Virus record (IMG/VR): IMGVR_UViG_3300014204_000143
DNA from: a virus
Lineage: Duplodnaviria > Heunggongvirae > Uroviricota > Caudoviricetes
Strand: one strand, 5' to 3'
Length of the DNA: 64,000 nucleotides
Shown here: positions 44,230-62,900 of the stretch, piece by piece
Numbering within the stretch: position 1 is the first letter of the stretch
Layout: the number at the start of each line of letters is the position of its first letter
Position numbers and translations under genes: made by a program
Notes under the pieces: generated by a model
The model's database searches: none
Told to the model about the DNA's origin: nothing
What the model saw: the letters and a program-made list of their open reading frames with translations, nothing else

Positions 44230-44231
44230 AA

Positions 44232-45039: not shown

Positions 45040-45115
45040 ATTATTTTAATTATTGGCTCGATTATCACTTAGACAGAAAGCCTGAAATCACCTAACGGCT
45101 CTGTTACCAAATTTA

Positions 45116-45313: not shown

Positions 45314-45340
45314 AATATTATTTTACTATTTTAATTTATT

Positions 45341-45429
45341 TGGAGGTCTTGGTTGGGAGTCGAACCCAAATACCTTGTATGTGGCTGTTCCTAACCACTA
45401 CGCTCTATCCAAATTGAGCTACCAAGACC
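45341..45429 (-). tRNA. tRNA gene (isotype unresolved, possibly His-like with a G-1 nucleotide). The anticodon region is unusually long.
   Basis: Reverse complement reads G-GTCTTGG TA GCTC AATTTGGATA GAGC ... TTGGG TTCGACT CCCAA CCAAGAC C. There is a perfect 7-bp acceptor stem, a canonical D-arm and a TPsiC arm (GGGTTCGACTCCC). The segment between the D-arm and T-arm is ~9 nt longer than standard. Confidence 0.6.
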
Positions 45430-45465
45430 ACGTTGTCCCAACCAACTTGGCTGAGACAAAGTTGT

Positions 45466-45750
45466 TTATAACTCGATTCTATTTCGTAAATCATCAATAA
45501 TATCATTTATTCTTTCAACGAAATCAATATCTTTTTGGATTTCCTCAGCTAATTTACATTCTCTTACTCCTCTGTCTTCGTGGACATCTTTTAGTGTTTC
45601 TGATGTCAAAACACTTGATAATTGTAATGTCAAAGAAGCAACATTTTCATCTAATCTCTGGAGTTCTTTATCAAAATTTGACATTACTTTTTTGATTTCT
45701 GGTGTTTTGCCAATTTCCTGACCTGTGAAAGTTTGTTCAAAATTTTTCAT
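45466..45750 (-). CDS. Hypothetical protein preceded by a family-C element
   Basis: 94-aa ORF. Element copy at 45758-45787. Confidence 0.35.
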   Translation of the reverse strand: MKNFEQTFTGQEIGKTPEIKKVMSNFDKELQRLDENVASLTLQLSSVLTSETLKDVHEDRGVRECKLAEEIQKDIDFVERINDIIDDLRNRIEL

Positions 45751-45757
45751 ATTTTTT

Positions 45758-45787
45758 TATTTATCCCCTACTTAAATTTGAGAGGCT
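45758..45787 (-). promoter_or_regulatory. Family-C element copy 1 (TTTATCCCCTACTTAAATTTGAGAGGC, degenerate hairpin)
   Basis: Matches 60065-60097 and 60629-60660. Lies 8 nt upstream of ATG 45750. Confidence 0.4.
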
Positions 45788-45825
45788 ATTTTACTATTTT
45801 AATTTTTTGACCGACCATATAAATT

Positions 45826-46521
45826 TTACATACTAATAAATCTACCTAATTTATTTCTTTTTGAATTATATTTTTTAGAAAACACCTTATCTAAGTCTAA
45901 ACATTTTAGTATTCTATATCTAGCTGTTTCATACGGTATATTATATTTTTTTACCCAATACATAAGAGGTTTAGTTATTCCTTTATATGTTATTAGATTA
46001 TTGCATCTTTTATTACTTGCCTGTTCGCTCATTGTTACCCATTGACAATTTTTTTTAGAATAATTACCACTATTATCAATTCTATCTATAGACGTTTTCC
46101 TATCTCCATATTTTTTGGAATGCTTTGTATAACTTTCATACATATCATTTTTAAATTCTTCAAAGTTTTTCCACTCACATTTTATATTCCGTCCACCATA
46201 ATTTTTATAAGATATTGAATTTTTATTACAGGTTCTTGATTTTATAGCATACCATATATTATAAAATCTAGTCTTAGACATATTATGTTTTTTCCATTTG
46301 TATTTTAAACATCCACAACTTTTAGTATTTCCATTTATAAGATATGCTGTCTTTACTATTGCTTTATTTCCACAATCACACTTACAAACCCAATACGCAT
46401 TTCTGTTTTTTATGTGTGAAAATTTTATTGCTGTTAATTTATTAAATTTTTTTCCAGTAATATTTTTAATATTTTTATTCATATTCTTGTTCTTTTTTAT
46501 CTCTAAACAATATCCCCTCAC
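45826..46521 (-). CDS. Cys-rich protein with an HNH_3-like homing-endonuclease signature
   Basis: CKCDCGN...CGC at the N-terminus; ...SIDRIDNSGNYSKKNCQWVTMSEQASNK resembles the H-N-N motif of phage HNH_3 endonucleases. Confidence 0.4.
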   Translation of the reverse strand: MRGYCLEIKKNKNMNKNIKNITGKKFNKLTAIKFSHIKNRNAYWVCKCDCGNKAIVKTAYLINGNTKSCGCLKYKWKKHNMSKTRFYNIWYAIKSRTCNKNSISYKNYGGRNIKCEWKNFEEFKNDMYESYTKHSKKYGDRKTSIDRIDNSGNYSKKNCQWVTMSEQASNKRCNNLITYKGITKPLMYWVKKYNIPYETARYRILKCLDLDKVFSKKYNSKRNKLGRFISM

Positions 46522-46625
46522 CTGTGTCGTTTGCTAATTTTAGTTTGTTCATAGTTTTATTTTTTTTAATTATATCTTTTAAGAAATAAGGATAAAAAGC
46601 GGGTGTTAACATATTTATTTGTTAA

Positions 46626-47003
46626 TTAAAATATTTTTTCTAAAATTACTCTTATCCAATATGACATAAAATATGCACGAAGTTCAGTATCGTCTTTTCC
46701 TAAATCTCTAGCTTTTATCATATTGTCTAAATAATGTTGTAACTCGTGACATAAATAAGCAATACTTTGTGGAGATTTATCAAAGGTTTTTATCCAAATA
46801 AGATTATTATGTTTTCCATTATTATCAACAATAGAAAAACATTGTCCCTGTATATTCTCCCATGAATAAGGAACTACAAACTCCATATCTTTTCTGCCAC
46901 TTTCTTTTTTAAATATTTTAACTATTTCGTCAGCGTGACAATTTATTATAAGATGTAATGAATTTTCAAATAAATCTTTTTCAAAATAATAATAATTTTT
47001 CAT
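46626..47003 (-). CDS. Small HExxH-motif protein (putative Zn-metallopeptidase-like, ImmA/IrrE or SprT-like)
   Basis: LCHELQHYLD contains HExxH. It is the first gene behind promoter copy B2. Confidence 0.35.
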   Translation of the reverse strand: MKNYYYFEKDLFENSLHLIINCHADEIVKIFKKESGRKDMEFVVPYSWENIQGQCFSIVDNNGKHNNLIWIKTFDKSPQSIAYLCHELQHYLDNMIKARDLGKDDTELRAYFMSYWIRVILEKIF

Positions 47004-47028
47004 AAAACTTTGTTAATAACCTATAAAC

Positions 47029-47076
47029 AGTTTAACATACTAAAAACACCTTGTCAAGTGGTAATCTGTGGATAAC
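47029..47076 (-). promoter_or_regulatory. Sigma70-like promoter on the minus strand (TTGACA-17-TAAACT) with an exact DnaA-box 9-mer (TTATCCACA, seen as ctgtggataa on plus) 10 nt upstream of the -35
   Basis: Reverse complement: GTTATCCACAGATTACCACTTGACAAGGTGTTTTTAGTATGTTAAACT. Drives 46626..47003. Confidence 0.55.
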
Positions 47077-47136
47077 TTATAAATCAATTAGTTAAAAACG
47101 AATGTTATACTTAAATTATAATTAAATAAAATCAAA

Positions 47137-47418
47137 ATGGAACAAAATCTTTACAGCACTAGAGACTTAATTGAGGCCGCCTCCTTAATCGCTCTAAAAT
47201 TTCCCATGGTAAATATCGACTACCAGTCAGAAGACACAAAACTTGTCGGTTACTTCGTTTTTGAAGATAGTCCAGAATTACAAGAAATGGTTATCAAATC
47301 TTTATCAAAGCAATTAGCCTTTGAGCCGAGAGAATTTAATAGTATTATTAAAAGTCTCAAAGCTCAATTAGCCAATACAAAAAAAAGTCCGAGTAGTAAA
47401 TATTCGGGGAGCTACTAA
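47137..47418 (+). CDS. Hypothetical protein (first plus-strand gene after the divergence point)
   Basis: 93-aa ORF. Confidence 0.35.
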   Translation: MEQNLYSTRDLIEAASLIALKFPMVNIDYQSEDTKLVGYFVFEDSPELQEMVIKSLSKQLAFEPREFNSIIKSLKAQLANTKKSPSSKYSGSY

Positions 47419-47450
47419 GAAACTCTTTAGTTTTTTTTATTACGTTTGAC

Positions 47451-47497
47451 TTATCCACAGGACATATCTTGACAAGGTGTTTTTGTTGTAGTATAAT
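47451..47497 (+). promoter_or_regulatory. Consensus sigma70 promoter (TTGACA 47469-47474, 17-nt spacer, TATAAT 47492-47497) with an exact DnaA box TTATCCACA (47451-47459) upstream. It drives the tRNA-like locus.
   Basis: Seen directly: ttatccacag gacatatc TTGACA aggtgtttttgttgtag TATAAT. Confidence 0.6.
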
Positions 47498-47643
47498 GGT
47501 AGTGATTTCTTCGAAATCAAAAAAACTATTTCAGTAATCATCCAGTTCTCATACTTCTGGATGGTTATAGTGGGTTAGAAAAGTAGCAATTCGCAAGCCC
47601 CATAAGCTTGAGACACAGGTGCAAATCCTGTACCCGCCACCAA

Positions 47644-47736
47644 GCCACTTAGTAGTTTAATGGTAGAAAAACCAGAGGAAAAACACCCAGCGTAAGCTCG
47701 TGGAGATTGTTGGTTCGAGTCCAACTAGTGGCCCCA
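47644..47736 (+). tRNA. tRNA-like gene (~93 nt incl. encoded CCA). It has a canonical T-arm and acceptor stem, with a long D/anticodon/variable region (type II tRNA, or one carrying an insert).
   Basis: 5' GCCACTT pairs with 3' TAGTGGC (6/7). T-arm GTTGG TTCGAGT CCAAC is canonical, then discriminator C and CCA. The D-loop region AGTTTAATGGTAG contains the conserved GG. The anticodon stem could not be folded confidently by eye. Confidence 0.45.
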
Positions 47737-47834
47737 ATAATTAGGCATAAAAAACATGAAAAAGTTTGTAAAAAGTTCATTGGGTTGTTTTTATATAAGT
47801 TGCGTCATGTCTTCTTAAATGCCTAAACAGCCCA

Positions 47835-48143
47835 GTGATTTTTTTATATAACAAAATAATTATGAATCTAATAGAACACCGCCGACAAATTTATGACACT
47901 ATTGACAACATGTTTCAGGTGACAATGACTCCTGAACAGCTTAAGATTATTTCTAATTGCCTTAAACGTTACGCTATCCACTATTCGGAATCGGCTATCA
48001 AAACGATTCACGAACTGACTGAAGCCTTAGCGTCTAGAAAAGAGTCAAAAAAACAACCAAAACAAGTAAAAAAAGAAATTAAAAGAGTTCCTGTGATGGA
48101 AAAAACACCAGTTTATCCAAGAATAAGGTGTGCTAGATATTAG
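47835..48143 (+). CDS. Hypothetical protein
   Basis: 102-aa ORF (the true start may be the internal MNLIEH). Confidence 0.3.
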   Translation: MIFLYNKIIMNLIEHRRQIYDTIDNMFQVTMTPEQLKIISNCLKRYAIHYSESAIKTIHELTEALASRKESKKQPKQVKKEIKRVPVMEKTPVYPRIRCARY

Positions 48144-48269
48144 GGGTGTCAATCAACGAATGTTATAATTAAAGTGCAGTTGATTAAATACATTTAATTA
48201 TAACGCTTTGAAAAGCTGGTTCAACTGCAAATGTAGCCAGCTACTCATAGCGTTTTTAATTATAAAAAC

Positions 48270-48767
48270 ATGTCGTTAATAGAAGTTAAGACCCTAAATA
48301 AGTATATAATACCAAGTTTTTCTGGAGAAAATAAATATATAATTTATTTTTTAATTAGTAATGAAACCATTGTTTATGTAGGTCAAACAGAGTGTGGTTT
48401 AAGAAGAATTGGCGGACATTTTGGGTTTAAAGATTTTGATAGTTTTACATTTACTCCAGCACCATCAGATAAAAACGAAAGATTAAAATTAGAGGAACAA
48501 TATATTTTAAAATACCAACCAAAGTATAATAAAATAACTGAAAGAAAAACATTAATTTCAAAAGGATATATATCAATTGATTGTGCAATTAAAAAATATT
48601 ATAATAATCTATCTAATAAATTAAAATATAACGATTTCAAGAAATGGTTAATTGGTTTAGAAGTTAGCCTTGACTGTATAAAATTAAAATCTCGTGACGG
48701 GTGGGGCAAAATAGACATCTTTTTTATAAAATCAGAGTTAGAAAAAGAAATTAAAAAATTAATCTAA
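48270..48767 (+). CDS. GIY-YIG nuclease (homing-endonuclease-like)
   Basis: KYIIYFLISNETIVYVGQTECGLRRIGGH...ERLKLEEQYILKYQPKYN carries GIY...YIG, R, E and N in the canonical spacing. Confidence 0.6.
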   Translation: MSLIEVKTLNKYIIPSFSGENKYIIYFLISNETIVYVGQTECGLRRIGGHFGFKDFDSFTFTPAPSDKNERLKLEEQYILKYQPKYNKITERKTLISKGYISIDCAIKKYYNNLSNKLKYNDFKKWLIGLEVSLDCIKLKSRDGWGKIDIFFIKSELEKEIKKLI

Positions 48768-48772
48768 ATAAT

Positions 48773-49912
48773 ATGGAAAACGAAATTGAAATTGAAAAAG
48801 ATTTAAAAGGAGGAATAGACGACCTTATCGATAATATTGTTATAAATACTCGTCAGAATATTGACATGTTCTTATTAGAAGAAAAACCAGCAGAATTAAT
48901 GGCTCTATATGATTTTTATTATTATACTGCCAAGTGGCAAAAAACTAATCAACCAAGGGCAACAATTAGTTATGTTATGAAAGGTTTAAAATGGGGAGAA
49001 ACAAAAGTTAGAAAAAATAAAAAAATATTAATAAGATTAGGGCTAATAAGAGATTTTAGAGCTGTAGATAAAAAAACTGGAAAAATAAATGGCTGGTATA
49101 TAAAAGTTTGTTATATTTGGAGTAAAGAAAACCTATTAAATAGAATAAAAACCACCCTCTCAAAAATCCAACAGGTGGTTTACGAGGGGACAAATGCTTT
49201 AAGTGATTCTAATTTAAATGCTTTAAGTGATTCTGTAAATTTTCAGAACAACGCCGATTTAGCAGTACCCAACGTTTCTCCTAGTTCAACCTCGGAAGAA
49301 AATTTACCTTCACCTTCTTATAAGTGGGGTTTAAACTCGGCTAGTGCTACTTCTGCTGTTCCTGCTCCTCAACAAGATAATACTCCTCAACTTTCTTCTA
49401 CTACAACTTCTCAACATACGTCTATTCAACTATGCAGTCCAGTTAAACCTTCTTCAAAACAAGACTCTCTAGCTAAAAAGCCTCTAGCCTCATCGAAAAA
49501 TCCACCAAAAATTTTTTCAACCGAGGAAATCGAACGCTTCAAAAAGCTTCGTGCCGAAGAAGTCCAATGCTTCAACCTCGTCAGGCAGGACTTAACACCA
49601 TCACTAGAAACCCAGAAGTCACCAATTTACGACCCGACATTTGATTTTAATAGAGAAATGTTAAAGTTAGAGAATGACAAACAGGTACACGTTCGGATTA
49701 TTGCTTTGTTTTGGTATGCCAAGGGGACAACTTTTGAAAACGAAGGACAGTATAAAGCCCAATTTAGACGTTTGCTAAAGGGGGCTAGTCAACTAAAGCA
49801 CTACTCTTTCGATAAAATATTGAAAGCAATGGTGAGTGCTAGCGAAGAAAGTAAAAAAGTTGGTTATGACTGGGGACTTGAAACAGCGATTAAAAAGATT
49901 GATAAGGTCTAA
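48773..49912 (+). CDS. Hypothetical protein with N- and C-terminal globular parts separated by an S/T/P-rich disordered linker. Possibly a replication-initiation or DNA-binding protein.
   Basis: 379-aa ORF with a winged-helix-like N-terminus (KGLKWGETKVRKNKKILIRLGLIRDFR). No firm motif. Confidence 0.25.
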   Translation: MENEIEIEKDLKGGIDDLIDNIVINTRQNIDMFLLEEKPAELMALYDFYYYTAKWQKTNQPRATISYVMKGLKWGETKVRKNKKILIRLGLIRDFRAVDKKTGKINGWYIKVCYIWSKENLLNRIKTTLSKIQQVVYEGTNALSDSNLNALSDSVNFQNNADLAVPNVSPSSTSEENLPSPSYKWGLNSASATSAVPAPQQDNTPQLSSTTTSQHTSIQLCSPVKPSSKQDSLAKKPLASSKNPPKIFSTEEIERFKKLRAEEVQCFNLVRQDLTPSLETQKSPIYDPTFDFNREMLKLENDKQVHVRIIALFWYAKGTTFENEGQYKAQFRRLLKGASQLKHYSFDKILKAMVSASEESKKVGYDWGLETAIKKIDKV

Positions 49913-50067
49913 CCCCCTCCCAACGTGCCACTAGACGCACCACAATCAATTCTACGGCGTTTAAATCCTGTTTATGTCCAATCTACCACAAAGCACCATA
50001 CTCTTGTCCTGGGGCAAATTAGACACATTACAGGTCAAATCTAAAATTAACAAAAAAAATTAACAAA

Positions 50068-50313
50068 GTGTCTATGATTAAACTCATCATCAATCCTTTA
50101 ACGACAATGACTAAAAAGGTTGGAAGGCTAGCCATTGTTGGATATTTAAAGGCAAATAAAATTCCATTCGAAGTCGAGGAAAAAAATGTCCGCAAAGAGA
50201 AGTTTATTGTTGACAAAGATGAATATAATATCGATGATGTTGTTTCGAGAGAATACTTATATAAAATAATCGGAAAAAGAGTTAAGAGTGGTAATCTAAA
50301 CCCAACAAAGTAA
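50068..50313 (+). CDS. Hypothetical small protein
   Basis: 81-aa ORF. Confidence 0.3.
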   Translation: MSMIKLIINPLTTMTKKVGRLAIVGYLKANKIPFEVEEKNVRKEKFIVDKDEYNIDDVVSREYLYKIIGKRVKSGNLNPTK

Positions 50314-50403
50314 CTTATCCCCAGATTTTGTCAATAAAGAATTGACAGCCACTTTGAAATAGGTAATTATGAAAGCATAAAATAAAAATAACCAAAATTT
50401 AAA

Positions 50404-50979
50404 ATGAAAAAAGATAAATTGGAGATTGTCGCTCCACATTTCAAGAAGTCACAAGAAGTTACTAAAGAGAATCTCACGTTAATTTCTGATGTTATGTTTG
50501 CCATGGTTGATATATGCCAGAAGCTAGAAGAAGACAAAATAGTTTCTGATGCTTATGCTTTAGCCCATTGTCAAGTCGAATCAGAAACTCCGTTGAGATT
50601 TTTTGTTTTTAATATTACCAATCCAGAAATTTCAATGCTAATCGGCACCGATATTTCTCCTGTCATTATTAATCCATGTATTGTCAATCACACTAAAGTT
50701 TTTGTAGAAAAAGCAGAAGCGTGTTTGAGTGCGGCTGGGTATGGTGGAGCAATTGTTAAGAGGTTTAATAAAGTGACGGTAGAATTTAATGAACTTCAAA
50801 CCGACGATGATAAAACTTTCTATATGGGTGAAAGACGAACGATGAATCTAAGTGGAAAACTTTCTCAAATTTTTCAACACGAGATAGACCACTTCTTAGG
50901 TAGATACATATTTGAAGACGATATTATGGAAAGTATTGCCGAGATAATGGAAAAAGATAAAAAAAAGAAAGAGAAATAA
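50404..50979 (+). CDS. def: Peptide deformylase
   Basis: EACLSAAGYGG (EGCLS motif II) and QHEIDHFLG (HEXXH motif III). Confidence 0.75.
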   Translation: MKKDKLEIVAPHFKKSQEVTKENLTLISDVMFAMVDICQKLEEDKIVSDAYALAHCQVESETPLRFFVFNITNPEISMLIGTDISPVIINPCIVNHTKVFVEKAEACLSAAGYGGAIVKRFNKVTVEFNELQTDDDKTFYMGERRTMNLSGKLSQIFQHEIDHFLGRYIFEDDIMESIAEIMEKDKKKKEK

Positions 50980-51127
50980 TAAGAACGGATATGATTAAAG
51001 AGTTTATAATAGGAATATTATTATCCTCAGAAATGGCAAAATTAGAAGGAGAATCTTTTGATTTTGAATTTACATTAAGAAAAGTATTAAACGAAATAAA
51101 CGAAAACGAAAATTAAATAAAAAATTT

Positions 51128-52132
51128 ATGCGAAAATTAGTAACAGTTCAAAAGGTATTAGAAAAAAAATCAATAGAAGGAGCCGATAGAATTGAGGCAG
51201 TAAGGATTAATGGTTGGTGGGTAGTGACACAAAAAGACCAATTTAAAGTTGGCGAGTATTGTATTTATTTTGAGGTGGATTCGTTTTTGCCAATTAAACC
51301 AGAATTTGAATTTCTTTTAAATGGTAAGTCGCCTAAAAAAATGCTATACAAAGGAAAAGAAGTTGAGGGTATTAGGTTGAAAACAATTAAGTTAAAAGGA
51401 CAGCTGAGCCAGGGCTTAGTAATGCCAATTACCGAAACGATGATAATAAAAGAAATTGATGAAGATTTGTCAGATTATTTTGGAGTTATATTATACGAAC
51501 AACCAGTCCCACCACAACTTCAAGGATATGCTAAGGGCAATTTTCCAGGATTTATTCCAAAGACTGATGAAGAAAGAATACAAAATATGACGGAAATTTT
51601 TAATAATTATGTCGCCACAGAAAAGATTGATGGCACTTCTGCAACATATTATAAAAAAGACGGGGTATTTGGGGTTTGTAGTAGAAATTTAGAATTAGTT
51701 AAAGGGGAAAGTATTTATTGGAGAATCGCAGAAAAATATAATTTAGAAAATATAATTCCAGACGGGTTATGTTTTCAGGGGGAAATAATAGGAGAGGGTA
51801 TTCAAGGAAATCCTTTAAAGCAAACTGGTCAAGATATTTATTTTTTCAATGTCTATAATATTGAAAGCAATACTTATTTAGATTTTGATGAATTTCTAAA
51901 TATTTGTGAAAAATTAAATCTTAAAACTGTTCCAATTATAAATGACAATTTTTCTTTGCCAAAAAATGTTGATGATATGTTATGGTTTGCAGAAGGGTTT
52001 GCAGAAGGAAAAAGTTTATTGAATCCAAACGTAGAACGAGAAGGCGTTGTCGTCAGAAGTAAAAACAAAATAAATGGCGAAAGGATTTCTTTTAAAGCCA
52101 TTTCAAATACTTATTTATTAAATGAAAAATAA
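51128..52132 (+). CDS. ATP-dependent RNA ligase (Rnl2/DRB0094-like nucleotidyltransferase)
   Basis: Ligase motif I ATEKIDGTSATYY (KxDG), ...FQGEIIGEGIQGN and motif IV-like EGVVVRS. Confidence 0.6.
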   Translation: MRKLVTVQKVLEKKSIEGADRIEAVRINGWWVVTQKDQFKVGEYCIYFEVDSFLPIKPEFEFLLNGKSPKKMLYKGKEVEGIRLKTIKLKGQLSQGLVMPITETMIIKEIDEDLSDYFGVILYEQPVPPQLQGYAKGNFPGFIPKTDEERIQNMTEIFNNYVATEKIDGTSATYYKKDGVFGVCSRNLELVKGESIYWRIAEKYNLENIIPDGLCFQGEIIGEGIQGNPLKQTGQDIYFFNVYNIESNTYLDFDEFLNICEKLNLKTVPIINDNFSLPKNVDDMLWFAEGFAEGKSLLNPNVEREGVVVRSKNKINGERISFKAISNTYLLNEK

Positions 52133-52146
52133 TTAATTATAAAACT

Positions 52147-52746
52147 ATGTTTGGATTTAGTAAAAAACAAAAAGAAATAGAATTCATCACAAAACAACAA
52201 ATTGATGAAATTGTTGCTTCGTTAACTGATTTTATGGTAAAGAGTGAACTACCACTAGTTGATTTTTCCGAGGGCGATACGCTTAGGTGGAAAGTAACAA
52301 AAGACACATATAAACCGTCTTGGGATATACTAAAAGAAATCAACGATCTTAAATGTGAAAATGGTCAAAGAAAACGTGAAAATAAAGAACTAAAAGACGA
52401 AATCAATGTCTTAAATTCTAATAACGATTTTCTACGTAACGAAATTAAAAAAATAAATGAACAATGTGTCCGATACGATGAAAATTTCAAAAGAATCAAA
52501 GACGAGTTTTATGTGCCTGACTATTTAGTAACTACTGGTGAGGCGACTGGACATCAAAATATTTTAAAGTCGGAGGCTGTTAGTTTTGATAAATTAAATA
52601 GTGGAGCTTTTAAAATGATTGTTAACGGAGAACTTAGTTTTGGTGGGATAGACACACATCATACTTCCAAAGAAAATTACGAAAACCATAAATCATTAAT
52701 TGATAAGTGGAAAAAAGAAATCAATAATAACAAACCAAAAAAATAA
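52147..52746 (+). CDS. Hypothetical coiled-coil protein
   Basis: 199-aa ORF. Confidence 0.3.
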   Translation: MFGFSKKQKEIEFITKQQIDEIVASLTDFMVKSELPLVDFSEGDTLRWKVTKDTYKPSWDILKEINDLKCENGQRKRENKELKDEINVLNSNNDFLRNEIKKINEQCVRYDENFKRIKDEFYVPDYLVTTGEATGHQNILKSEAVSFDKLNSGAFKMIVNGELSFGGIDTHHTSKENYENHKSLIDKWKKEINNNKPKK

Positions 52747-53640: not shown

Positions 53641-53645
53641 TAAAT

Positions 53646-55223: not shown

Positions 55224-55452
55224 AAATAATAAACAGTGTCATATTGAAATAGAATTATACGATTGTTATGGGTTTGGAGATATGATATTAAATCAGCTAT
55301 TAAACAACTCACTGAAACTAGAAAAACAATACAGGTGGATGAGTTGTAAAAATTTAAATAAAACCATTAGTGCTATTGGTTTATTTAAATTAAATGACAA
55401 TCAGTTTGAAATGCTAGAGGTTAAAGACATTAACAAAATAATAAATAAATAA
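55207..55452 (+). CDS. Hypothetical small protein
   Basis: 81-aa ORF. Confidence 0.3.
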   Translation: MQLINKNNKQCHIEIELYDCYGFGDMILNQLLNNSLKLEKQYRWMSCKNLNKTISAIGLFKLNDNQFEMLEVKDINKIINK

Positions 55453-55454
55453 AA

Positions 55455-57011
55455 ATGCAACAAGAAGAAAAAGATAAACTTACAGTAGAAAAAATTAATC
55501 AGGAACTTACAGAGGATTTAATAAAAAAAGACAAAGAAGAATTATTAAAAGAAAAAGTAAAGTTAGATGCTAGAAATAAATTAGAAGAATGTCTAAAGGC
55601 TGATGGTTTTATGATTCTGTTTAATAGTAAACACCTGGTAGTGGAAACTCCAATTGATACAAGATTTAGATTAGACCATTCAACAACTCGTGTTAGTTTT
55701 TCAAGTGATGATATTATGCAGAGCGTTGATGCTTGTGTGACTCAACTCGGTGTAAAACTAGAACCAGCACCAATTGTGGTTGTTCCTCCAAAGGTAGAAA
55801 CTCCTAGAAAGCCCTTAAAGATAGCCATTATTACACACTTTAATCAAATGCAGGAGTCATATTCTCCAGCAAAAGCAGTTAAAAACCAAATCAAAATTCT
55901 ACAAAAGTTTGGTCACGAAGTTGTCTTTTTTACCCAAGAAGGTAGCACTGTCGATGTCGGTTGTGAAATGAGAGCAAAAGTACCAAAGTTTAAAAGAGTT
56001 AAAGGTGTAATTAATAGTGAAGCCAAACAAAAAATGATTGATATGCTCCGAGAAGAATTAACAAATGATTTTGACTTGGCAATTACTCACGACTTTTATC
56101 TTGATGATTGTATTACTTATCGAGAGGCGATTAAAGAATGTGGAGTTGATATACCTTGGTTGCATTGGGCAAGAAGTGGTGTCGGTCATAAGATTGATTG
56201 TTATGCTCCAAATACTCACTGGGTTTATATGAACTACGCTGACACTCAAAGATTTTCTAACAACATCAGTGTTCCTCAAGAAGATATACGTGTAGTCTTT
56301 AACGAAAAAGACCCATCGCTGTTTTTTAAGTGGGACCCGATTACAACGATGATTTCAAACAGAATGCGACTCTGGGAAAAAGATATTATCCAAACTTATC
56401 CTATCTGCACTACCCGTATGGATGCAAAAGGACTGAATGAAGTTTTAAAAGTTTTCTCGTGTTTAAAAAGACTCGGTAAAAAGGTTTGTTTGGTTATCTG
56501 TAATTCAAATGGTAGAAAAAGAATTGAAGAAATAAATGCAAAGATAGAATATGCTAAAACTTTAGGACTAGTTCACGGTGAAGATTTTATTTTTACCAAT
56601 CAACTTGCCAACGAAGAATATCAAATTGAAAGTGAAATTCCAAATAAGGTCGTTGCAGAATTATTGTTGATTTCTAATTTGTTTATCTTTCCTACGGTGG
56701 CTGAAGTTTGTTCTAATATTTTATTAGAGGCTTCGATGTCTAAGAATCTTTTGGTCTTAAATTCTGACTTACCAAATTTGTTTGACTTTGCTGACAGTGG
56801 TGCAGTTTTGTCTTATCCCTTTTCTTCTAATATTAGCCTTCATTATCAAAGTAAAGACCAAGAATCTTATGACAGACTAACTAAACAAATTATCGGACAA
56901 CTTGAAAGCAATAAATCCGATAGACAGTTTAGACACGTTTGGTCAAAGCATAATCTAGAAACTATTTATCGAGATATGTTAGAACCCGTAATTTATGAAT
57001 TAATAAAATGA
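55455..57011 (+). CDS. Hypothetical protein, possibly a GT-B-like glycosyltransferase
   Basis: 518 aa. The central IAIITHFNQMQESYSPAKAVKNQIKILQKFGHEVVFF resembles GT4-type N-terminal Rossmann starts. This is weak. Confidence 0.25.
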   Translation: MQQEEKDKLTVEKINQELTEDLIKKDKEELLKEKVKLDARNKLEECLKADGFMILFNSKHLVVETPIDTRFRLDHSTTRVSFSSDDIMQSVDACVTQLGVKLEPAPIVVVPPKVETPRKPLKIAIITHFNQMQESYSPAKAVKNQIKILQKFGHEVVFFTQEGSTVDVGCEMRAKVPKFKRVKGVINSEAKQKMIDMLREELTNDFDLAITHDFYLDDCITYREAIKECGVDIPWLHWARSGVGHKIDCYAPNTHWVYMNYADTQRFSNNISVPQEDIRVVFNEKDPSLFFKWDPITTMISNRMRLWEKDIIQTYPICTTRMDAKGLNEVLKVFSCLKRLGKKVCLVICNSNGRKRIEEINAKIEYAKTLGLVHGEDFIFTNQLANEEYQIESEIPNKVVAELLLISNLFIFPTVAEVCSNILLEASMSKNLLVLNSDLPNLFDFADSGAVLSYPFSSNISLHYQSKDQESYDRLTKQIIGQLESNKSDRQFRHVWSKHNLETIYRDMLEPVIYELIK

Positions 57012-57421
57012 AATTAAAAGAGTTTATAATCGATGAAGTCTGGTGGACTGTTGATGATATTTTTAAAGATGTTAAATATTTTTTTAGAAGACATCTCTGG
57101 AAACTTATTAAAGGATATTACCCAGAAGATATTTGGAATCTCGGCTATTACTTTTCTTATCACATTCCTTTTATGCTCCGTAATTTTATTGAGTCCAATA
57201 GATGCGGTTATCCTTGCAATACTACCCAAGAAGAATGGGAAAAAAAATTACAGAGTGTCCTTTACAAACTTGAGTCAATTAAACGTTATGAATCACAAGC
57301 CCCAGATAAGTGTAAAGAATATGACTGGGAAAAAGATTTAAAAGAAGAAGAGACTGCAGAAGAAGAATTTGTTAAGGGGTGGCACGAACTTGGGGATATA
57401 ATTTTTAAACTTTGGGATTAA
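57008..57421 (+). CDS. Hypothetical protein
   Basis: 137-aa ORF. Confidence 0.3.
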   Translation: MKLKEFIIDEVWWTVDDIFKDVKYFFRRHLWKLIKGYYPEDIWNLGYYFSYHIPFMLRNFIESNRCGYPCNTTQEEWEKKLQSVLYKLESIKRYESQAPDKCKEYDWEKDLKEEETAEEEFVKGWHELGDIIFKLWD

Positions 57422-57574
57422 TATGAAAAAAAAAGAAACTCCAAAAATGTCTTATCTGGCTTGTCCTTATTGTGATGGCATAATTCATGCAATATCGCTC
57501 GAAGATTTTATTTGCGAGCACTGCAAGAAGTCCCTTAAGTTTGAAGATGCATTTAAAAATATTAAATTAAAAAA

Positions 57575-57949
57575 ATGTTAGAGTTAGGACAATTTCTTAG
57601 TGGAAGGTGTGAAAATTATGAAACTAAAGAGTGGGTTGATGCTCTGATTGATTATTTGTTAGAAAAAATTAAAATAGTATATGTTAACAAATATCATAAA
57701 ATTTTTGATGAAGTAGACGACCTAGACAATATTGAATTAAAAGGGATTATTGTCAGTTCATATTATTGGGGAGATGATGAAAAAGAAATTAAAAAACCAA
57801 ACCTTAAATTCAAGGGACTAAAACAAGAAATTCAATGGTATAAATATCCTGGTCGGGGTCAAACGTCAAAATATAAATATACAGACTTAGAATGGATTGA
57901 CTGGTTTAATAAAGCACTTAAAATAATTAGGAAAAATAATAAATATTAA
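57575..57949 (+). CDS. Hypothetical protein
   Basis: 124-aa ORF. Confidence 0.3.
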   Translation: MLELGQFLSGRCENYETKEWVDALIDYLLEKIKIVYVNKYHKIFDEVDDLDNIELKGIIVSSYYWGDDEKEIKKPNLKFKGLKQEIQWYKYPGRGQTSKYKYTDLEWIDWFNKALKIIRKNNKY

Positions 57950-57950
57950 A

Positions 57951-58826
57951 ATGAAAAATGTTCTTATAACTGGATACCGAGGTTTTGTCGGTCGAAGTCT
58001 CTGCACTCAACTCGCTTGTCAAGGAATTACCCATAGCGGATATGACTTGCTTGATGGCGATGATATTCGTGATAAGTTTACGCTTGATACTAAATTTATG
58101 AATGGTAATTTTGATAGCGTGATTCATCTGGCGGCTTTAACTGGAGTCCCACGGAGCGACGAGTATTATGAAGAATATTTTAGCACCAACGTTGTCGGGA
58201 CACAGAACGTGGTGAATCTAGCAAAAAAATATGGAGTCAAAAATATAATCTTTTATAGTTCATCTTCTGTCTATGGTGGAGCAACTAATGAAAAAGGAAT
58301 CAGTGAGAGTTTTCAACTTCGTCCAATTTCTACTTATGGAATTACAAAAAAAACTGGCGAAGATATTATAAAAAATAGCGGACTCAACTGGGCAATTGTT
58401 CGGCCATTTACGATTTATGGTGAGCAAGGAAAACCATTTGCAGTGATTAAGAAGTGGATTAATCAGATTAAGGCTGGACAACCTATCACGTTTTATGGTG
58501 ATGGCACATCTTCACGAGGGTATACTTACATTAAAGACATTGTTAAAACCACGATTGACTTACTAAACAAAATGGAATCAGGGATGGGGGCTGACATTTA
58601 TAACGTAGGAGGATCTGAAAATATAACCCTTAACGAACTTTATCAAATTTTTGAAGAAGTCTGTAAGCGTAAGAAAATAAAAATTGAAAGAGTGAATAAA
58701 GAGAGACCCGACTATGATATAGCAAACTCCTTTGCTGATGTGACTAAAGCAAAACTTTTACTGGGATATGAACCTAAGGGAAATTTTAAAGAAGCCACGA
58801 GAGCGATACTGGAGGCTGAACTGTAG
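57951..58826 (+). CDS. NAD-dependent sugar epimerase/dehydratase/reductase (extended SDR)
   Basis: N-terminal ITGYRGFVGRSL (GxxGxxG), YSSSSVYGG and YGITK (YxxxK). Confidence 0.8.
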   Translation: MKNVLITGYRGFVGRSLCTQLACQGITHSGYDLLDGDDIRDKFTLDTKFMNGNFDSVIHLAALTGVPRSDEYYEEYFSTNVVGTQNVVNLAKKYGVKNIIFYSSSSVYGGATNEKGISESFQLRPISTYGITKKTGEDIIKNSGLNWAIVRPFTIYGEQGKPFAVIKKWINQIKAGQPITFYGDGTSSRGYTYIKDIVKTTIDLLNKMESGMGADIYNVGGSENITLNELYQIFEEVCKRKKIKIERVNKERPDYDIANSFADVTKAKLLLGYEPKGNFKEATRAILEAEL

Positions 58827-58829
58827 ATT

Positions 58830-58918
58830 GATTGCGACATTTTAAAGCGTTGATTGCGACATTTTATTCTTAAATTTTAATGCCAGTCAATGTTTAAGCC
58901 ATTTAATTGCGACATTTT
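58830..58918. repeat. Three direct copies of ATTGCGACATTTT (58830, 58853, 58905) in the convergent intergenic region
   Basis: Seen directly: ttgATTGCGACATTTTaaagcgttgATTGCGACATTTTattc...ttaATTGCGACATTTTtaa. Confidence 0.7.
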
Positions 58919-58922
58919 TAAG

Positions 58923-58975
58923 GAAAAAAAATAGACTGGAAAGTGTTTTTAAGTCCTGCTCCAGTCTATTTTTGT
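58923..58975. terminator. Bidirectional rho-independent terminator between convergent genes
   Basis: aaaaaaaa ATAGACTGG-[21 nt]-CCAGTCTAT ttttg: a 9-bp stem flanked by an A-run and a T-run. Confidence 0.65.
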
Positions 58976-59005
58976 ATTGGTTGTAAGGTTAAAGCTTACT
59001 TGTGG

Positions 59006-59266
59006 TTATCTTTTCCAACTAACTCCGTGTTTGTAAAACCCTGTTGCAAAAGTTGTAAATAACCACGCTATTGTGCCAAGTAAACTGTAAAAAGTATAAA
59101 AGACTATATCTCTATCAAAAGTATCTCTTGATGATGATGGATATTGTTTTTTAAAATATCCATTCATTGCTCCAACATTAAACCAGACACAAATAAAATA
59201 GATAAATATAATCAATACCGTTGTCATAGATTTACTTTGTAAGGTTGATGAACGGTAAAGTAGCAT
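59006..59266 (-). CDS. Small integral membrane protein
   Basis: 86 aa, two hydrophobic helices. Overlaps the SPFH gene's 3' end. Confidence 0.35.
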   Translation of the reverse strand: MLLYRSSTLQSKSMTTVLIIFIYFICVWFNVGAMNGYFKKQYPSSSRDTFDRDIVFYTFYSLLGTIAWLFTTFATGFYKHGVSWKR

Positions 59267-60056
59267 TTGGAATCATTTGTCCTGGTAATTTTCCGTCCCA
59301 TTTTTCGATAGACTTTAGTGCTACATAGTCTGCACCACCTTGACTGCTAATAGCCTGTGCCTGAATTTTGATTGCTTCGGCTTCACCTTTTGCTTGAGCT
59401 ATTCTCTGTTCCGCTTCATATTTACTTTGTTCTAGTTTATTTTTAGCCGCCAAAGCATCTTGTTCGGCAGTTACCTTTGCTTCGATAGCCTTGTTAAAAG
59501 ATTCTGAAAAATCAAAATTGATGATGTTGACTTGGTCAATAATAATTCCATAAGGTATCATTTTTTCTGAAAGAGTTGTTTTAATTTCGTCTCTGACAAC
59601 CTCTCGCTTAGTGATAAGCTCTTCGGCAGTATATTTTGATGTTGCCGCCTTAACGCTTTCTTGTAATGCTGGGTCAATTAGTCTTGACTTATAATCGATA
59701 CCAACTGATTTATAAATTGATAAAGCATAGTCAGGACTAAGATTAAAATTGACTGCTAATTTAGAACTGACAGTCTGTAAATCTTTGCTAGCCGCACTTG
59801 CCTCGACTTCGTCTTTTTGAACTTTAACGTCCATTTTAACAATTTTTTCAATATAAGGAACTTTTAAATTAAATCCCTCACCGACCGTTGAAATAGCCGC
59901 CCCAAATCTAACCCTAACACCTCTTTCGCCAGCATTAACGATTGACCACGAGCCAAATAAAACTGGTAACAACACAAAGAAAAATATTATAGTTGACATA
60001 ATAATTCTGCCAACGTAAACTTTTCCATCCCTTTCACTCACAAAAAAATTTTTCAT
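59232..60056 (-). CDS. SPFH/Band-7 (prohibitin/HflC-like) membrane protein
   Basis: N-terminal TM helix, then ...VNAGERGVRVRFGA...GFNLKVPYIEKIVKMDVKVQ... and a long Ala/Glu/Gln-rich coiled coil, typical of the SPFH domain. Confidence 0.75.
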   Translation of the reverse strand: MKNFFVSERDGKVYVGRIIMSTIIFFFVLLPVLFGSWSIVNAGERGVRVRFGAAISTVGEGFNLKVPYIEKIVKMDVKVQKDEVEASAASKDLQTVSSKLAVNFNLSPDYALSIYKSVGIDYKSRLIDPALQESVKAATSKYTAEELITKREVVRDEIKTTLSEKMIPYGIIIDQVNIINFDFSESFNKAIEAKVTAEQDALAAKNKLEQSKYEAEQRIAQAKGEAEAIKIQAQAISSQGGADYVALKSIEKWDGKLPGQMIPNATLPFINLTK

Positions 60057-60064
60057 AGTTTTAT

Positions 60065-60097
60065 TTTATCCCCTACTTAAATTTGAGGGGTTAATTT
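60065..60097 (-). promoter_or_regulatory. Family-C element copy 2 (TTTATCCCCTACTTAAATTTGAGGGGTTAATTT), 8 nt upstream of ATG 60056
   Basis: Perfect 5-bp inverted repeat CCCCT/AGGGG with an 11-nt loop. Confidence 0.45.
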
Positions 60098-60364
60098 ATA
60101 ATAGTCATTTTTTTTATCCCAAAGATATAATCCTTGTGGCATGGTAAATTTTTTACCAAGAGAAATATTTCCACTTTTCATTGAAAAACTTTCTCCTTTT
60201 TCAATTTTTATGAGGTTTAATTTTTCATCAAAAAACAAATCAATTCTATCTGAGTTTATTATTTTTTGTGAAGCCAACGATATTGAGATATTCACTATCT
60301 TTTCTCTCTGTATAACTCTAATCCCAAAATAATGTGTTCTTTTATTTATAAATTTTTTAAACAT
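60077..60364 (-). CDS. Hypothetical protein
   Basis: 95-aa ORF. Confidence 0.3.
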   Translation of the reverse strand: MFKKFINKRTHYFGIRVIQREKIVNISISLASQKIINSDRIDLFFDEKLNLIKIEKGESFSMKSGNISLGKKFTMPQGLYLWDKKNDYYKLTPQI

Positions 60365-60368
60365 AGAA

Positions 60369-60620
60369 TTAAAATTTAAGTTTACAATTTTTTATATGGC
60401 TTACTAAACTAACTGGATAAAATTTTATACCTTTATCCCACTCAACAAATTTAGTATCAGCCATTCTAGTAAAACAATCAAGGCAAATAAGGTTTTCTCG
60501 CTGACTTATGTGGGTAACTAATTCCCATATTTTTTTAGGAACCAAGAAATCAATTGAATATTCTCTATGGCAAAGTGAACATATTTGTCTGTGTGGTTTA
60601 CGTTCATCAGATTTTTTCAT
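60369..60620 (-). CDS. Small Zn-finger protein
   Basis: CSLCHREY...CLDCF. Confidence 0.3.
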   Translation of the reverse strand: MKKSDERKPHRQICSLCHREYSIDFLVPKKIWELVTHISQRENLICLDCFTRMADTKFVEWDKGIKFYPVSLVSHIKNCKLKF

Positions 60621-60628
60621 GTTTTTTA

Positions 60629-60660
60629 TTTATCCCCTACTTAAATTTGAGGGGTTAATT
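60629..60660 (-). promoter_or_regulatory. Family-C element copy 3, 8 nt upstream of ATG 60620
   Basis: Identical core to copy 2. Confidence 0.45.
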
Positions 60661-61099
60661 TTTTATTTGATAAATATCTTTTTTGATTAGCAATGATTCT
60701 GGTTGCGTTTTCTTTGTAGTAGCACTTGACACATAGTCCATTTCCTTTGTGTTTTCTTTTGACAGTTCCACATTTTTTACACTTTTTGTATCTTATAGAC
60801 CAAACTAGTTTTGAATTTATTATACACTCTTTTGAGCAAAATGAATAGGTGTTACTTTTTTCTTTCTGATAAAGTTTTCCACAAAGTTTGCAGGTGTAAT
60901 ATTTTCTTTCACGTTTGATATTCAAGTCTTTTGTGATTAAAAATATTCGCTGTTTTGAAAGACTAAACATATCCCCAATCATCTGTAACGATTTTCCCCT
61001 CGAACGTATAAGTCTTATTTTAGCGTCTCTCTCGGAATTATCAACGACTTGGTTATTTTTTAACCCCTGAATTTTTAGTTTTACTTCTTCTTCTGTCAT
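60641..61099 (-). CDS. Sigma-70 region-4-like HTH protein with C-terminal Cys-rich Zn ribbons (putative transcription regulator)
   Basis: GKSLQMIGDMFSLSKQRIFLITKDL resembles sigma region 4.2; then CKLCGK...CSKEC...CKKCG...CVKC. Confidence 0.4.
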   Translation of the reverse strand: MTEEEVKLKIQGLKNNQVVDNSERDAKIRLIRSRGKSLQMIGDMFSLSKQRIFLITKDLNIKRERKYYTCKLCGKLYQKEKSNTYSFCSKECIINSKLVWSIRYKKCKKCGTVKRKHKGNGLCVKCYYKENATRIIANQKRYLSNKKLTPQI

Positions 61100-61394
61100 A
61101 TTTTTTAGTTAAAGCTTTGATAATTTTTTTACTTACTTTTTCGAATTCTTTAAAGTCAAGTTTATTGTGTGGAAAGTCTTTTACTTTAATTTCATTTCCC
61201 GTAATACTAACCTCCCAATTTATTTGAATATTTAATTCATAATTAAACGTATCTGTATTTCTGTATTCGTTTATTTCTGCGTATATTTCTGAACAACCTT
61301 TAGTATACATCAATTTCTGCCAGCATTTATTACAATTAGGATAAATAATTTTGTTAGGTTTGAATTCTTCCCACTCATTGATTTTTGTTTTCAT
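61053..61394 (-). CDS. Hypothetical protein
   Basis: 113-aa ORF. Confidence 0.3.
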   Translation of the reverse strand: MKTKINEWEEFKPNKIIYPNCNKCWQKLMYTKGCSEIYAEINEYRNTDTFNYELNIQINWEVSITGNEIKVKDFPHNKLDFKEFEKVSKKIIKALTKKYDRRRSKTKNSGVKK

Positions 61395-61520
61395 ATTACT
61401 TTATTGTTAATTATTAAAGACCACCATATTATAAAATTTACTAAAGCGATTATTGCTAAGACTATATTAATCCACCAGTCTTTAATTATTTTAATCATAT
61501 TAATAAATAAATTGAAAGAG

Positions 61521-62900
61521 TTATCCTTTAATCACACCCAAAGGGCTTAATTCTACTAATATCTCAACTAAATCTTTTTGATTTTCCATCACGTCTTTGA
61601 TATTTTTATATGAACTTGTTGCCTCGTCTAAATCATCAGCAGTTCTAATTCCGTGGACAATTCCTTGGTCTTCTAATATTTTAATTTCATTTTCTAAGTT
61701 AAGGCTTTTTATTGCTTGTCCTCGTCCCATACATCTACCAGCTCCGTGCGAGCAAGAATTAAAACTTTCTGGATTACCTTTTCCTTTTACAATATAAGAA
61801 TTAGAACCCATTGACCCAGGGATTATTCCGATTGTGTCTTCTGTGGCAAGTGTCGCTCCTTTCCTATGAACCATTACATTTGTTCCAAAATGATTTTCCA
61901 TTCGAGCGTAATTGTGAGCGATGTTTATCATTGGCTCTGTTTTAAATCTTTTTGTTCCTTTATATACTAAATTTTTATACTCTTCTACACTTTTTTCCCC
62001 TCTTTTTTTTAGTTCGTCTAGAACTTTTTTGTCCGTAAATTCCCAATTACATCTTGCACATTTTGGATATTGACTGATAGCAAGTAACTTGTAACCACAT
62101 TTAGGACAACCGTCTCTATATATTTTTTCAAGTCTATCGCATTCATCAATAACTGAATTAAACTGTTTATTAAAGATGTTAATAATTCTCTCCATCATCA
62201 ACTTTCTATTAGCCAAAGCAAACTCAACACAATAATTCATTTCTCTAATATATGCTTTACCCTCTTCGCTATCAATTGGTAAAAAAGCTAAGTCAAATTC
62301 TTTAGGAACTTCACTGTGCCATTTTTCGTTTAATTCTTTAGCTATTTTATTATAATGGTCAGCTACTTGTTTTCCTAAATTTCTTGAACCACTATGAATC
62401 ATAATCCAAATATGTCCGTCAGAACCTTTTTGAATTTCGATGAAGTGATTGCCACCGCCAAGAGTTCCAATAGATAAACAAGCATTGTTAAACTCTTGAT
62501 TACAGATTTTTAAATCATCTGACAATTCTGGCATTAATCTGCTTTGATAAGACTCGTATTCTTTATGTTTATTGAACCCAACAGGAATAGCCCTTCTAAT
62601 TTCACCAATTATTTTTTTAAGGGTATCTTTGTCTAATTCAGTTAAAGAAGTCTTAACTGCACAAAGCCCGCACCCAGCGTCTGACCCGACCATTGACGGA
62701 CAGACTACACCTTTTAATGCAACCACTCCTCCAATAGGCATTCCAAATTTAGAGCAATGACAATCTAGCATTATTGCTACGTGGTGAAATGCAAATGGTA
62801 ATTTTACTAGATTATCAATTTGTGTCATAGCACTTTCTTCTATTTCTGGACACCAACTAAAAACTGGGATTTTGTTTTTTTCTTTTTTAAATTTTTTCAT
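61521..62900 (-). CDS. rtcB: RtcB-family RNA ligase (3'-phosphate/5'-OH) with an inserted CxxC zinc ribbon
   Basis: CPSMVGSDAGCG, GGNHFIEIQ, HSGSRNLG and SCSHGAGRCMGRGQA are RtcB core motifs. CPKCGYKLLAISQYPKCARC is an insert. Confidence 0.8.
   Translation of the reverse strand: MKKFKKEKNKIPVFSWCPEIEESAMTQIDNLVKLPFAFHHVAIMLDCHCSKFGMPIGGVVALKGVVCPSMVGSDAGCGLCAVKTSLTELDKDTLKKIIGEIRRAIPVGFNKHKEYESYQSRLMPELSDDLKICNQEFNNACLSIGTLGGGNHFIEIQKGSDGHIWIMIHSGSRNLGKQVADHYNKIAKELNEKWHSEVPKEFDLAFLPIDSEEGKAYIREMNYCVEFALANRKLMMERIINIFNKQFNSVIDECDRLEKIYRDGCPKCGYKLLAISQYPKCARCNWEFTDKKVLDELKKRGEKSVEEYKNLVYKGTKRFKTEPMINIAHNYARMENHFGTNVMVHRKGATLATEDTIGIIPGSMGSNSYIVKGKGNPESFNSCSHGAGRCMGRGQAIKSLNLENEIKILEDQGIVHGIRTADDLDEATSSYKNIKDVMENQKDLVEILVELSPLGVIKG

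Follow-up and report, generated by a model that had tools for sequence, protein, structure and literature searches.

Does the set of RNA-repair and translation genes carried by an uncultivated tailed phage work as one system? The question is raised by a 64,000-nucleotide (nt) stretch of viral DNA (Caudoviricetes; IMG/VR record IMGVR_UViG_3300014204_000143), hereafter called the window, which corresponds to positions 19..64018, reversed, of the 92,733-bp metagenome contig k141_1632479 (ENA ERZ27247350) and is phage-like, with a G+C content of about 30%. The original prediction held that, between positions 45341 and 62900, the RNA ligase RtcB and an ATP-dependent RNA ligase together reseal tRNAs cut by host anticodon nucleases, in the company of tRNA genes, a peptide deformylase and a miniature alanyl-tRNA synthetase (AlaRS). 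Every gene named there exists and, judging from their residues, the protein enzymes look catalytically intact, yet they appear to be scattered accessory genes. We consider that the span is probably the early/replication region of a tailed phage of about 93 kilobases (kb), and that its accessory genes, which belong to known families, were acquired independently and do not make up one pathway. The unusual features are a zinc-ribbon insert in RtcB, a compact AlaRS and an aberrant tRNA-like gene. Our comparison bears directly on family membership, catalytic residues, layout and comparative context, and it is from these that we infer activities and biological roles. The genes in question are as follows.

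61521..62900, minus strand: RtcB, a 3′-phosphate/5′-OH RNA ligase of 459 amino acids (aa) (PF01139, E=9e-101)
51128..52132, plus strand: ATP-dependent RNA ligase of the Rnl5 family (DraRnl/NgrRnl), 334 aa
50404..50979, plus strand: divergent peptide deformylase, 191 aa (PF01327, 58.7 bits against a cut-off of 22.8)
47569..47642, plus strand: tRNA with anticodon CAU and an encoded CCA end (ARAGORN; RF00005, 50.5 bits against a gathering threshold of 29)
45341..45429, minus strand: tRNA-like gene of 89 nt with a tRNA-Arg-type D arm, called 'tRNA-Pro(AGG)' by ARAGORN
33308..34147, minus strand: compact alanyl-tRNA-synthetase-like protein, 279 aa (P0125; PF01411, E=7e-21)

The presence of RtcB at this position was borne out, with a PF01139 match of 338.6 bits against a cut-off of 27 that is split into two stretches by an insert. 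When the protein is aligned to P. horikoshii RtcB (1UC2/4DWQ), its residues D46, H48, D74, C77 and N151 correspond to D65, H67, D95, C98 and N202, and H152, H169, H329, H385 and K458 correspond to H203, H234, H329, H404 and K480. In the P. horikoshii enzyme, Asp95, Cys98, His203, His234 and His329 are metal ligands, and His404 is the GMP acceptor. The equivalents of the metal ligands and of the guanylylated His, together with N151 and K458, are invariant in 40 homologs. Substitution of the metal-binding residues, which the original prediction had named as the observation that would speak against it, is not seen in the sequence, where every catalytic residue is present. The AlphaFold2 model, with a predicted local distance difference test (pLDDT) value of 80.8, has human RTCB and P. 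horikoshii RtcB as its top Foldseek matches (8ODP, 4DWQ and 1UC2; E down to 6e-27, template modelling (TM) score 0.69-0.73). The window RtcB shares its Pfam family, its predicted fold and all the metal-binding and GMP-accepting His residues with known RtcBs, namely the enzymes of E. coli, P. horikoshii and human and phage RtcBs such as those of Caulobacter phage phiCbK and mycobacteriophages; it looks catalytically intact.

RtcB is annotated in 688 phage records, and the closest metagenomic relatives of the window protein are 60-70% identical to it and 385-425 aa long. Some close relatives reach 600-686 aa (L004:10001-11802 and L005:2090-3891 are among the long ones); in one relative (P0026), an intein is present at the catalytic Cys, and NCBIfam has dedicated models for intein-containing RtcB. 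Enzymes of this family join 3′-phosphate or 2′,3′-cyclic-phosphate ends to 5′-OH ends in a reaction that depends on GTP and Mn2+. Given this chemistry and the intact residues, RtcB alone is predicted to be able to rejoin the ends left by anticodon nucleases; no RtcA or Archease partner gene was seen in the window. In the mechanism that we propose, RtcB alone would reseal tRNAs or other RNAs after cleavage by host RNases of the metal-independent kind (anticodon nucleases, toxin RNases and the like). The part of the original prediction that considered RtcB suited to tRNA resealing is thus upheld by the residues and the family chemistry, and it is further supported by the neighbourhood of its relatives, where, at nine of 33 viral loci (IMG/VR loci L004-L007, L015-L017, L024 and L025), RtcB has a tRNA gene or array no more than 60 nt away. 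At five of those nine loci the immediate neighbour is tRNA-Pro(UGG). This adjacency supports a tRNA-related role for phage RtcB in general. At L004 and L005, 25 tRNAs are found directly downstream of RtcB, and at L024:9378-9463 and L025:9052-9138 the tRNA by RtcB is a tRNA-Asn(GUU) of 86-87 nt that folds with a long extra arm, an uncommon trait in a class I tRNA.

The insert is what distinguishes the window RtcB from the known RtcBs, since it alone has an insertion of about 65 residues with the motif CPKC-x12-CARC. The relevant features are the following.

61932..62159, minus strand: lineage-specific insert of RtcB, approximately residues 248-323, with a helical extension, a zinc ribbon and two helices
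within 62049..62108, minus strand: Cys codons of the CPKC-x12-CARC motif
43056..43358, minus strand: 100-aa open reading frame (ORF) with an N-terminal zinc ribbon like that of the RtcB insert, ECPRCGYHIILHSLVAECARC

A zinc ribbon had been predicted in RtcB, and the four-Cys insert is real, but the spacing is x12 and not x16: the cysteines are C265-P-K-C268 and, after 12 residues, C281-A-R-C284, and the figure of sixteen is obtained when one counts from the leading Cys of one pair to that of the other. The extra length of the protein is due solely to the loop that connects the FALANR helix to the NIAHNY strand and that has 94 aa in the window RtcB against 20-57 aa in 114 close homologs; the matching gap in P. 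horikoshii RtcB (the 311-324 loop) has 12 residues. In some relatives, the same loop contains other Cys-rich sequences, for example C..H..CPVCGH and CLFKKLPCSDKNCICNC, and the loop is thus a hot spot for small metal-binding insertions. In the model, the insert prolongs the core helix and then forms an irregular two-knuckle region followed by two return helices, with a pLDDT of only 59-70. A search of 1.84 billion representative proteins for homologs of the insert returned only generic CPxC...CxxCxWEF ribbons, and a word search of 5.8 billion clusters gave no match; as the insert is a singleton, conservation cannot be used as an argument for its function. Within the window, the ORF at 43056..43358 resembles the insert (GCPKCGYKLLAISQYPKCARC), with 38% identity over 29 aa (E=2e-4) and the pattern ECPRCGY-x9-CARC against GCPKCGY-x9-CARC in RtcB, and this likeness hints that the insert may originate inside the phage genome. 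The GC fraction of the insert is 0.296, compared with 0.341 in the remainder of the RtcB gene. An intein was considered and rejected, because the insert is a zinc ribbon with helices in a different loop from Cys77, the site that is used by the genuine intein in P0026. The insert is most likely either an added module for contact with RNA or protein or a neutral decoration.

The second ligase was also found where it had been predicted, with the domains PF21189 (OB, residues 4-101) and PF09414 (nucleotidyltransferase, residues 160-325) and without a C-terminal domain. The description 'Rnl-type' holds in the broad sense, but the specific family is Rnl5 and not the T4 Rnl1-type tRNA ligase. This assignment follows from an end-to-end match to Naegleria NgrRnl (5COT, E=1.4e-56), from a score of 165 bits against the TIGR02306 RNA_lig_DRB0094 equivalog (cut-off 151.15), and from the motifs, in that motif I, K166-I-D-G, aligns with K170 of NgrRnl and QGEIIGE, REGVVV and SFKAIS are also present. 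Full-length similarity, domain set and KxDG are the same as in DraRnl and NgrRnl, and no differences of note were seen at the sequence level. The Rnl2 model gives 19 bits against a cut-off of 197, and no Rnl1-type ligase was found in the window, where Rnl5 was the sole ATP ligase detected. Relatives of this Rnl5 occur in 337 phage records. Rnl5 enzymes seal 3′-OH/5′-PO4 nicks in duplexes with an RNA 3′-OH strand, and the sole strand requirement of NgrRnl is RNA on the 3′-OH side; it is Rnl1 and Rnl4 that are tailored to breaks in stem-loops (PMC4408790). The same report states that the physiological substrates of Rnl5 are unknown and notes a proposal that it joins RNA-OH to pDNA (PMC4408790). 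The phage enzyme would more plausibly seal nicks with an RNA end, either within duplex RNA or where RNA meets DNA.

Could the two ligases nevertheless cooperate? The T4 pathway of Pnkp and Rnl1 counters the anticodon nuclease PrrC, and the purpose proposed here is alike, namely the restoration of tRNAs broken in the anticodon loop. However, neither T4 enzyme was found in the window, and the available chemistry is the direct joining of 3′-phosphate to 5′-OH by RtcB, not healing and sealing. The ends left by anticodon nucleases are 2′,3′-cyclic phosphate and 5′-OH, and ATP ligases need prior healing of such ends by a kinase and a phosphoesterase (PMC7824862). We scanned about 60 ORFs of the window with Pfam, PHROGs and NCBIfam, together with the precomputed Pfam annotation of the 9.6 kb upstream, and in neither region was Pnkp, 2H, HAD, RtcA or any other kinase, phosphatase or cyclic phosphodiesterase detected. 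Because Rnl5 needs 3′-OH/5′-PO4 ends and no end healer was found, it should be unable to use the products of anticodon nucleases; it would stand outside the reaction of RtcB. A 398-aa metallophosphoesterase (29322..30518, minus strand) was examined as a candidate end healer and rejected, as it is without a P-loop and in NCBIfam is most similar to the PolD small subunit (archaeal DNA polymerase II), not to Pnkp. This gene adjoins an SbcD-like gene, and an SbcC-like gene is nearby.

The arrangement of the genes gives the same picture. RtcB and Rnl5 belong to separate clusters on opposite strands, with about 9 kb between them, and synteny with the window is essentially nil beyond the query gene at the 33 viral loci of RtcB relatives and the two of Rnl5 relatives. 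The idea of a conserved operon was dropped, as these loci share no genes with the window, and the lack of a common gene order indicates that there is no conserved module of RtcB and Rnl5. The concept that phage RtcB, ATP-dependent ligases and tRNAs act against anticodon nucleases is set out in Iyer et al. 2021 (PMC7824862). In the multi-ligase sets of jumbo phages described there, for example in Burkholderia phage BcepSauron, RtcB, an ATP ligase and tRNAs occur in one genome as they do here, and BcepSauron also yields an Rnl5-type match. In contrast to those sets, the present phage has about 93 kb, and their kinase, phosphatase and RlaP nucleotidyltransferase were not found here.

What of the tRNA genes? 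The CAU gene was confirmed, whereas the assignment of the 89-nt gene to 'tRNA-Pro(AGG)' did not stand. Its acceptor stem is perfect over 8 bp, with U and CCA after it, the T arm is canonical, and the D arm contains GG-A20. The 89-nt gene scores 38 bits with the Rfam tRNA model and passes the threshold in the local search only, because 24 nt occupy 15 model positions in the anticodon arm; the canonical arm of 5 bp with a 7-nt loop is lacking. With this oversized arm, and with two mismatches among the six pairs of the anticodon stem drawn by ARAGORN, the AGG anticodon is unreliable. In the minimum-free-energy fold, the anticodon region forms a 9-bp stem with a 6-nt loop, and the RNA folds much better than shuffled sequence (z=-3.5). 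When the D-arm sequence was searched in metagenomes, seven of its nine matches proved to be tRNA-Arg genes, and the loop 5′-UUAGGAA-3′ is the exact reverse complement of the canonical tRNA-Arg(CCU) anticodon loop; the 3′ half has zero exact matches in viral or GTDB genome contigs. An intron was considered as the source of the extra length and rejected, since exhaustive single-block deletions gave no clean cloverleaf; the best 9-nt deletion restored four of five anticodon stem pairs, with G32. As a weaker possibility, the RNA may act as a decoy or regulator directed against a tRNA-targeting host factor.

How, then, should these genes be read? That RtcB and the ATP ligase jointly reseal tRNAs cut by PrrC, RloC or colicin-type nucleases, as the original prediction proposed, now seems to us quite unlikely. 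Both ligases look catalytically intact, relatives of RtcB adjoin tRNA genes, and phages with several RNA ligases and tRNAs have been interpreted in this way (PMC7824862), but the ATP ligase is a sealer of duplex nicks and not a stem-loop-acting Rnl1 or Rnl4, no healer was found that would yield 3′-OH/5′-PO4 from nuclease ends, and the two genes lie in separate clusters without synteny in relatives. On these grounds, joint action is the part of the prediction that is not supported. Another account would make Rnl5 a replication and repair enzyme of the phage that seals the RNA 3′-OH of a primer or RNA patch to 5′-phosphate DNA; it would be compatible with our reading of the other genes. The plus-strand order is deformylase, Rnl5, a 199-aa ORF, DnaB-like helicase and primase zinc finger, so that Rnl5 is two genes upstream of the DnaB-like helicase and the DnaG-type zinc-finger primase in the same cluster; the requirement for an RNA 3′-OH strand and the proposed RNA-OH/pDNA joining (PMC4408790) fit such a role, as does the fact that no DNA ligase was recognised in the window. 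Nevertheless, we regard this account as somewhat unlikely, as the argument is one of gene position only, the neighbours of Rnl5 relatives in two viral contigs are not common to the window, and a DNA ligase may be located in the remaining 19 kb of the contig.

For RtcB, one might suppose that the enzyme matures the RNAs of the phage itself, for example by joining processed pieces of the 89-nt tRNA-like transcript, and is not concerned with damage. The tRNAs, mostly tRNA-Pro(UGG), found close to RtcB in relatives and the eight or nine extra nucleotides in the anticodon arm of the 89-nt gene would be expected if this were so, but 9-nt deletions never give a clean arm of 5 bp and 7 nt, no bulge-helix-bulge can be drawn by hand in the RNA, no splicing endonuclease was detected, the tRNAs adjoining RtcB in relatives fold as ordinary cloverleaves, and the 89-nt gene is 16 kb from RtcB; we consider this proposal very unlikely. 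It is unlikely, too, that the oddities are merely noise, with the RtcB insert as a recent neutral or even disabling insertion and the 89-nt gene as a decaying pseudogene. The insert is a slightly AT-richer singleton with a low-confidence model, and the 89-nt gene is without a relative in viral or genome collections; against this, the insert is in frame with a complete four-Cys ribbon, the loop that holds it can accommodate 20-57 residues in relatives, the catalytic residues of RtcB are all kept, and the 89-nt RNA retains perfect acceptor, D and T arms and beats shuffled sequence in folding. We thus retain the reading of independently acquired accessory genes in which RtcB would reseal RNAs on its own, although several points weigh against it. 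RtcB in this phage is not beside a tRNA gene, unlike in its relatives, and its zinc-ribbon insert is a singleton with low model confidence. The remaining approximately 19 kb of the 92.7-kb contig could encode a kinase-phosphatase, and many small ORFs of the window are without a Pfam or PHROGs family, so that a divergent end healer is possible among them.

The compact AlaRS is the most novel lead in the window, though it is peripheral to the RNA-repair claim. It exists as predicted, but at 33308..34147 it is 11 kb outside the region 45341..62900 in which it had been placed. Its relatives form more than 1,000 clusters of 256-311 aa with 53-63% identity, and the family is represented in at least 78 viral contigs of IMG/VR, which range in length from 4 to 608 kb; in the phage collection, there was only one record with a compact AlaRS, that of an uncultured huge phage. 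The equivalents of E. coli AlaRS R69, W170, N212, D235 and G237 and of the motif 3 Arg are invariant in all 120 members examined, in an alignment of the family to the E. coli enzyme. The motifs PSN and (D/E)THG, which align with the Asn and Asp that read the G3:U70 pair, are kept in most members of the family; in the window protein, Gln takes the place of the Asp/Glu of (D/E)THG that is usual in the family. Its AlphaFold2 model has a pLDDT of 88.5, the top Foldseek matches are 441-residue catalytic fragments of AlaRS (TM 0.73-0.77, query), and on the basis of this model the protein resembles the whole aminoacylation fragment in pruned form. The full AlaRS domain set is not present, as the alignment contains large deletions and the editing and C-Ala regions are missing; TIGR00344 gives 74.8 bits against a cut-off of 457.

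Which tRNA might such an enzyme serve? The compact AlaRS has tRNA genes no farther than 5 kb away at 22 of the 78 viral loci, and 14 of these 22 include tRNA-Ala, which is sometimes adjacent. The share of tRNA-Ala among distinct tRNAs is 20 of 156 at the AlaRS loci versus one of 56 at the RtcB loci (Fisher p=0.017), and at the AlaRS loci G3:U70 is present in 15 of the 20 tRNA-Ala versus one of the 136 other tRNAs. The window itself contains no tRNA-Ala gene. At several loci (L052, L054, L060, L106, L111 and others), the compact AlaRS is inside or beside a tRNA array that is rich in tRNA-Ala, mostly with G3:U70. At L052 (IMGVR_UViG_3300009181_004073), mirror-image copies of the tRNA array flank the AlaRS gene, which could reflect either an artefact of palindromic assembly or a genuine inverted duplication. 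On a 537-kb scaffold of huge-phage size (L041:380-1012), a 210-aa fragment like a class II histidyl-tRNA synthetase is encoded 5 kb from the compact AlaRS; from this fragment, further trimmed synthetases may exist besides the compact AlaRS.

A literature search on 'mini-AlaRS' returned only the 461-aa Tupanvirus enzyme, TuAlaRS (PMC10036535). The phage protein is approximately 40% shorter, its tRNA-recognition domain is mostly trimmed, with PSN/(D/E)THG kept in most members, and it comes from a family of bacterial viruses and not from a giant eukaryotic virus. A paper on Mom-type DNA modification (PMC13219725) was followed as a lead for phage AlaRS and discarded, as AlaRS is merely a reagent there. 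We propose that the 279-aa protein would be a trimmed, active-looking alanine-activating enzyme of a large phage family, acting with tRNA-Ala. That this family constitutes an ultra-compact functional phage AlaRS, which charges tRNA-Ala or its acceptor stem, is apparently undescribed and is the smallest natural one, is a real possibility, though one that we advance tentatively.

Translation-oriented gene carriage is evident from tRNA(CAU), the deformylase and the compact AlaRS, accompanied by GroES/GroEL and thioredoxin, and the last two point to protein-folding helpers. The tRNA(CAU) has several oddities, namely an A1/C72 mismatch, U3-G70, C33 for U33, G55 for U55 and a D loop without GG. A perfect sigma-70 consensus-like site, TTGACA-17-TATAAT (47469..47497, plus strand), a putative promoter by consensus match only, is 72 nt upstream of this gene and is the sole 12/12 match in 45000..64000. 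Since AUA makes up 33% of the Ile codons in the window, the tRNA may be a lysidine-type reader of AUA or an initiator-like tRNA; a lysidine-dependent AUA reader, an elongator and an initiator-like tRNA are all possible. Behind its consensus promoter, it would supplement AUG decoding, or AUA decoding after lysidine modification. The gene lies beside the deformylase operon. The deformylase, which was present as predicted, retains the metal-binding and catalytic motifs EACLS (105, with the metal-binding Cys) and HEIDH (159), but its motif 1 has degenerated to AYALAHCQ, with the Gln retained. It is below every NCBIfam equivalog cut-off and at most 33% identical to any phage record. It belongs to the same family as the deformylases of Vibrio phage Vp16 (5MTC) and of Brevundimonas and Caulobacter jumbo phages and shares their EGCLS-like and HExxH motifs; relative to these, it is highly divergent, and its motif 1 has degenerated. 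Its substrates would be nascent phage proteins.

A DNA-level search of positions 45000-63000 against phage records found zero similar records. The layout of the window and its other features are as follows.

420..22222, plus strand: large structural genes
22223..47003, minus strand: block with SbcC/SbcD-like genes, a RuvC-like resolvase, an SF2 helicase, GroES/GroEL, sugar-nucleotide/glycosyl transferases and HNH endonucleases
47137..58826, plus strand: replication gene block
59006..63727, minus strand: second minus-strand block
37804..39405, minus strand: GroEL, 533 aa
within 39509..39844, minus strand: Cpn10/GroES, the ORF just upstream of GroEL
54957..55223: thioredoxin
45826..46521 (minus strand), 48270..48767 (plus strand), 22223..22912 (minus strand) and 23295..23681 (minus strand): HNH genes and one GIY-YIG homing-endonuclease-like gene

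Two of these HNH/GIY-YIG homing-endonuclease-like genes flank the tRNA region, and the RtcB gene is flanked by small zinc-finger and YopX-like ORFs.

What do these observations mean for phage biology? The RNA-repair side adds little, because phage RtcB, Rnl5, tRNAs and deformylases are each common and the anti-defence reading has been published. For annotation, an Rnl5 gene beside RNA genes should not be equated with T4-like tRNA repair unless end-healing enzymes are present. The FALANR-NIAHNY loop of RtcB is a hot spot of small Cys-rich insertions, of which the present ribbon is the largest among the relatives checked, and the loop is thus a candidate site for natural or engineered substrate-recognition modules. 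If our tentative proposal for the compact AlaRS is true, this would be the smallest natural AlaRS, at approximately 60% of the 441-461-residue minimal fragments known so far, and in many phages it would pair with phage-encoded tRNA-Ala genes carrying G3:U70. The compact AlaRS family provides a natural case in which to ask to what size an AlaRS can shrink without losing its ability to read the acceptor stem, a question of long standing in research on the minimal 'operational RNA code' of the synthetases.

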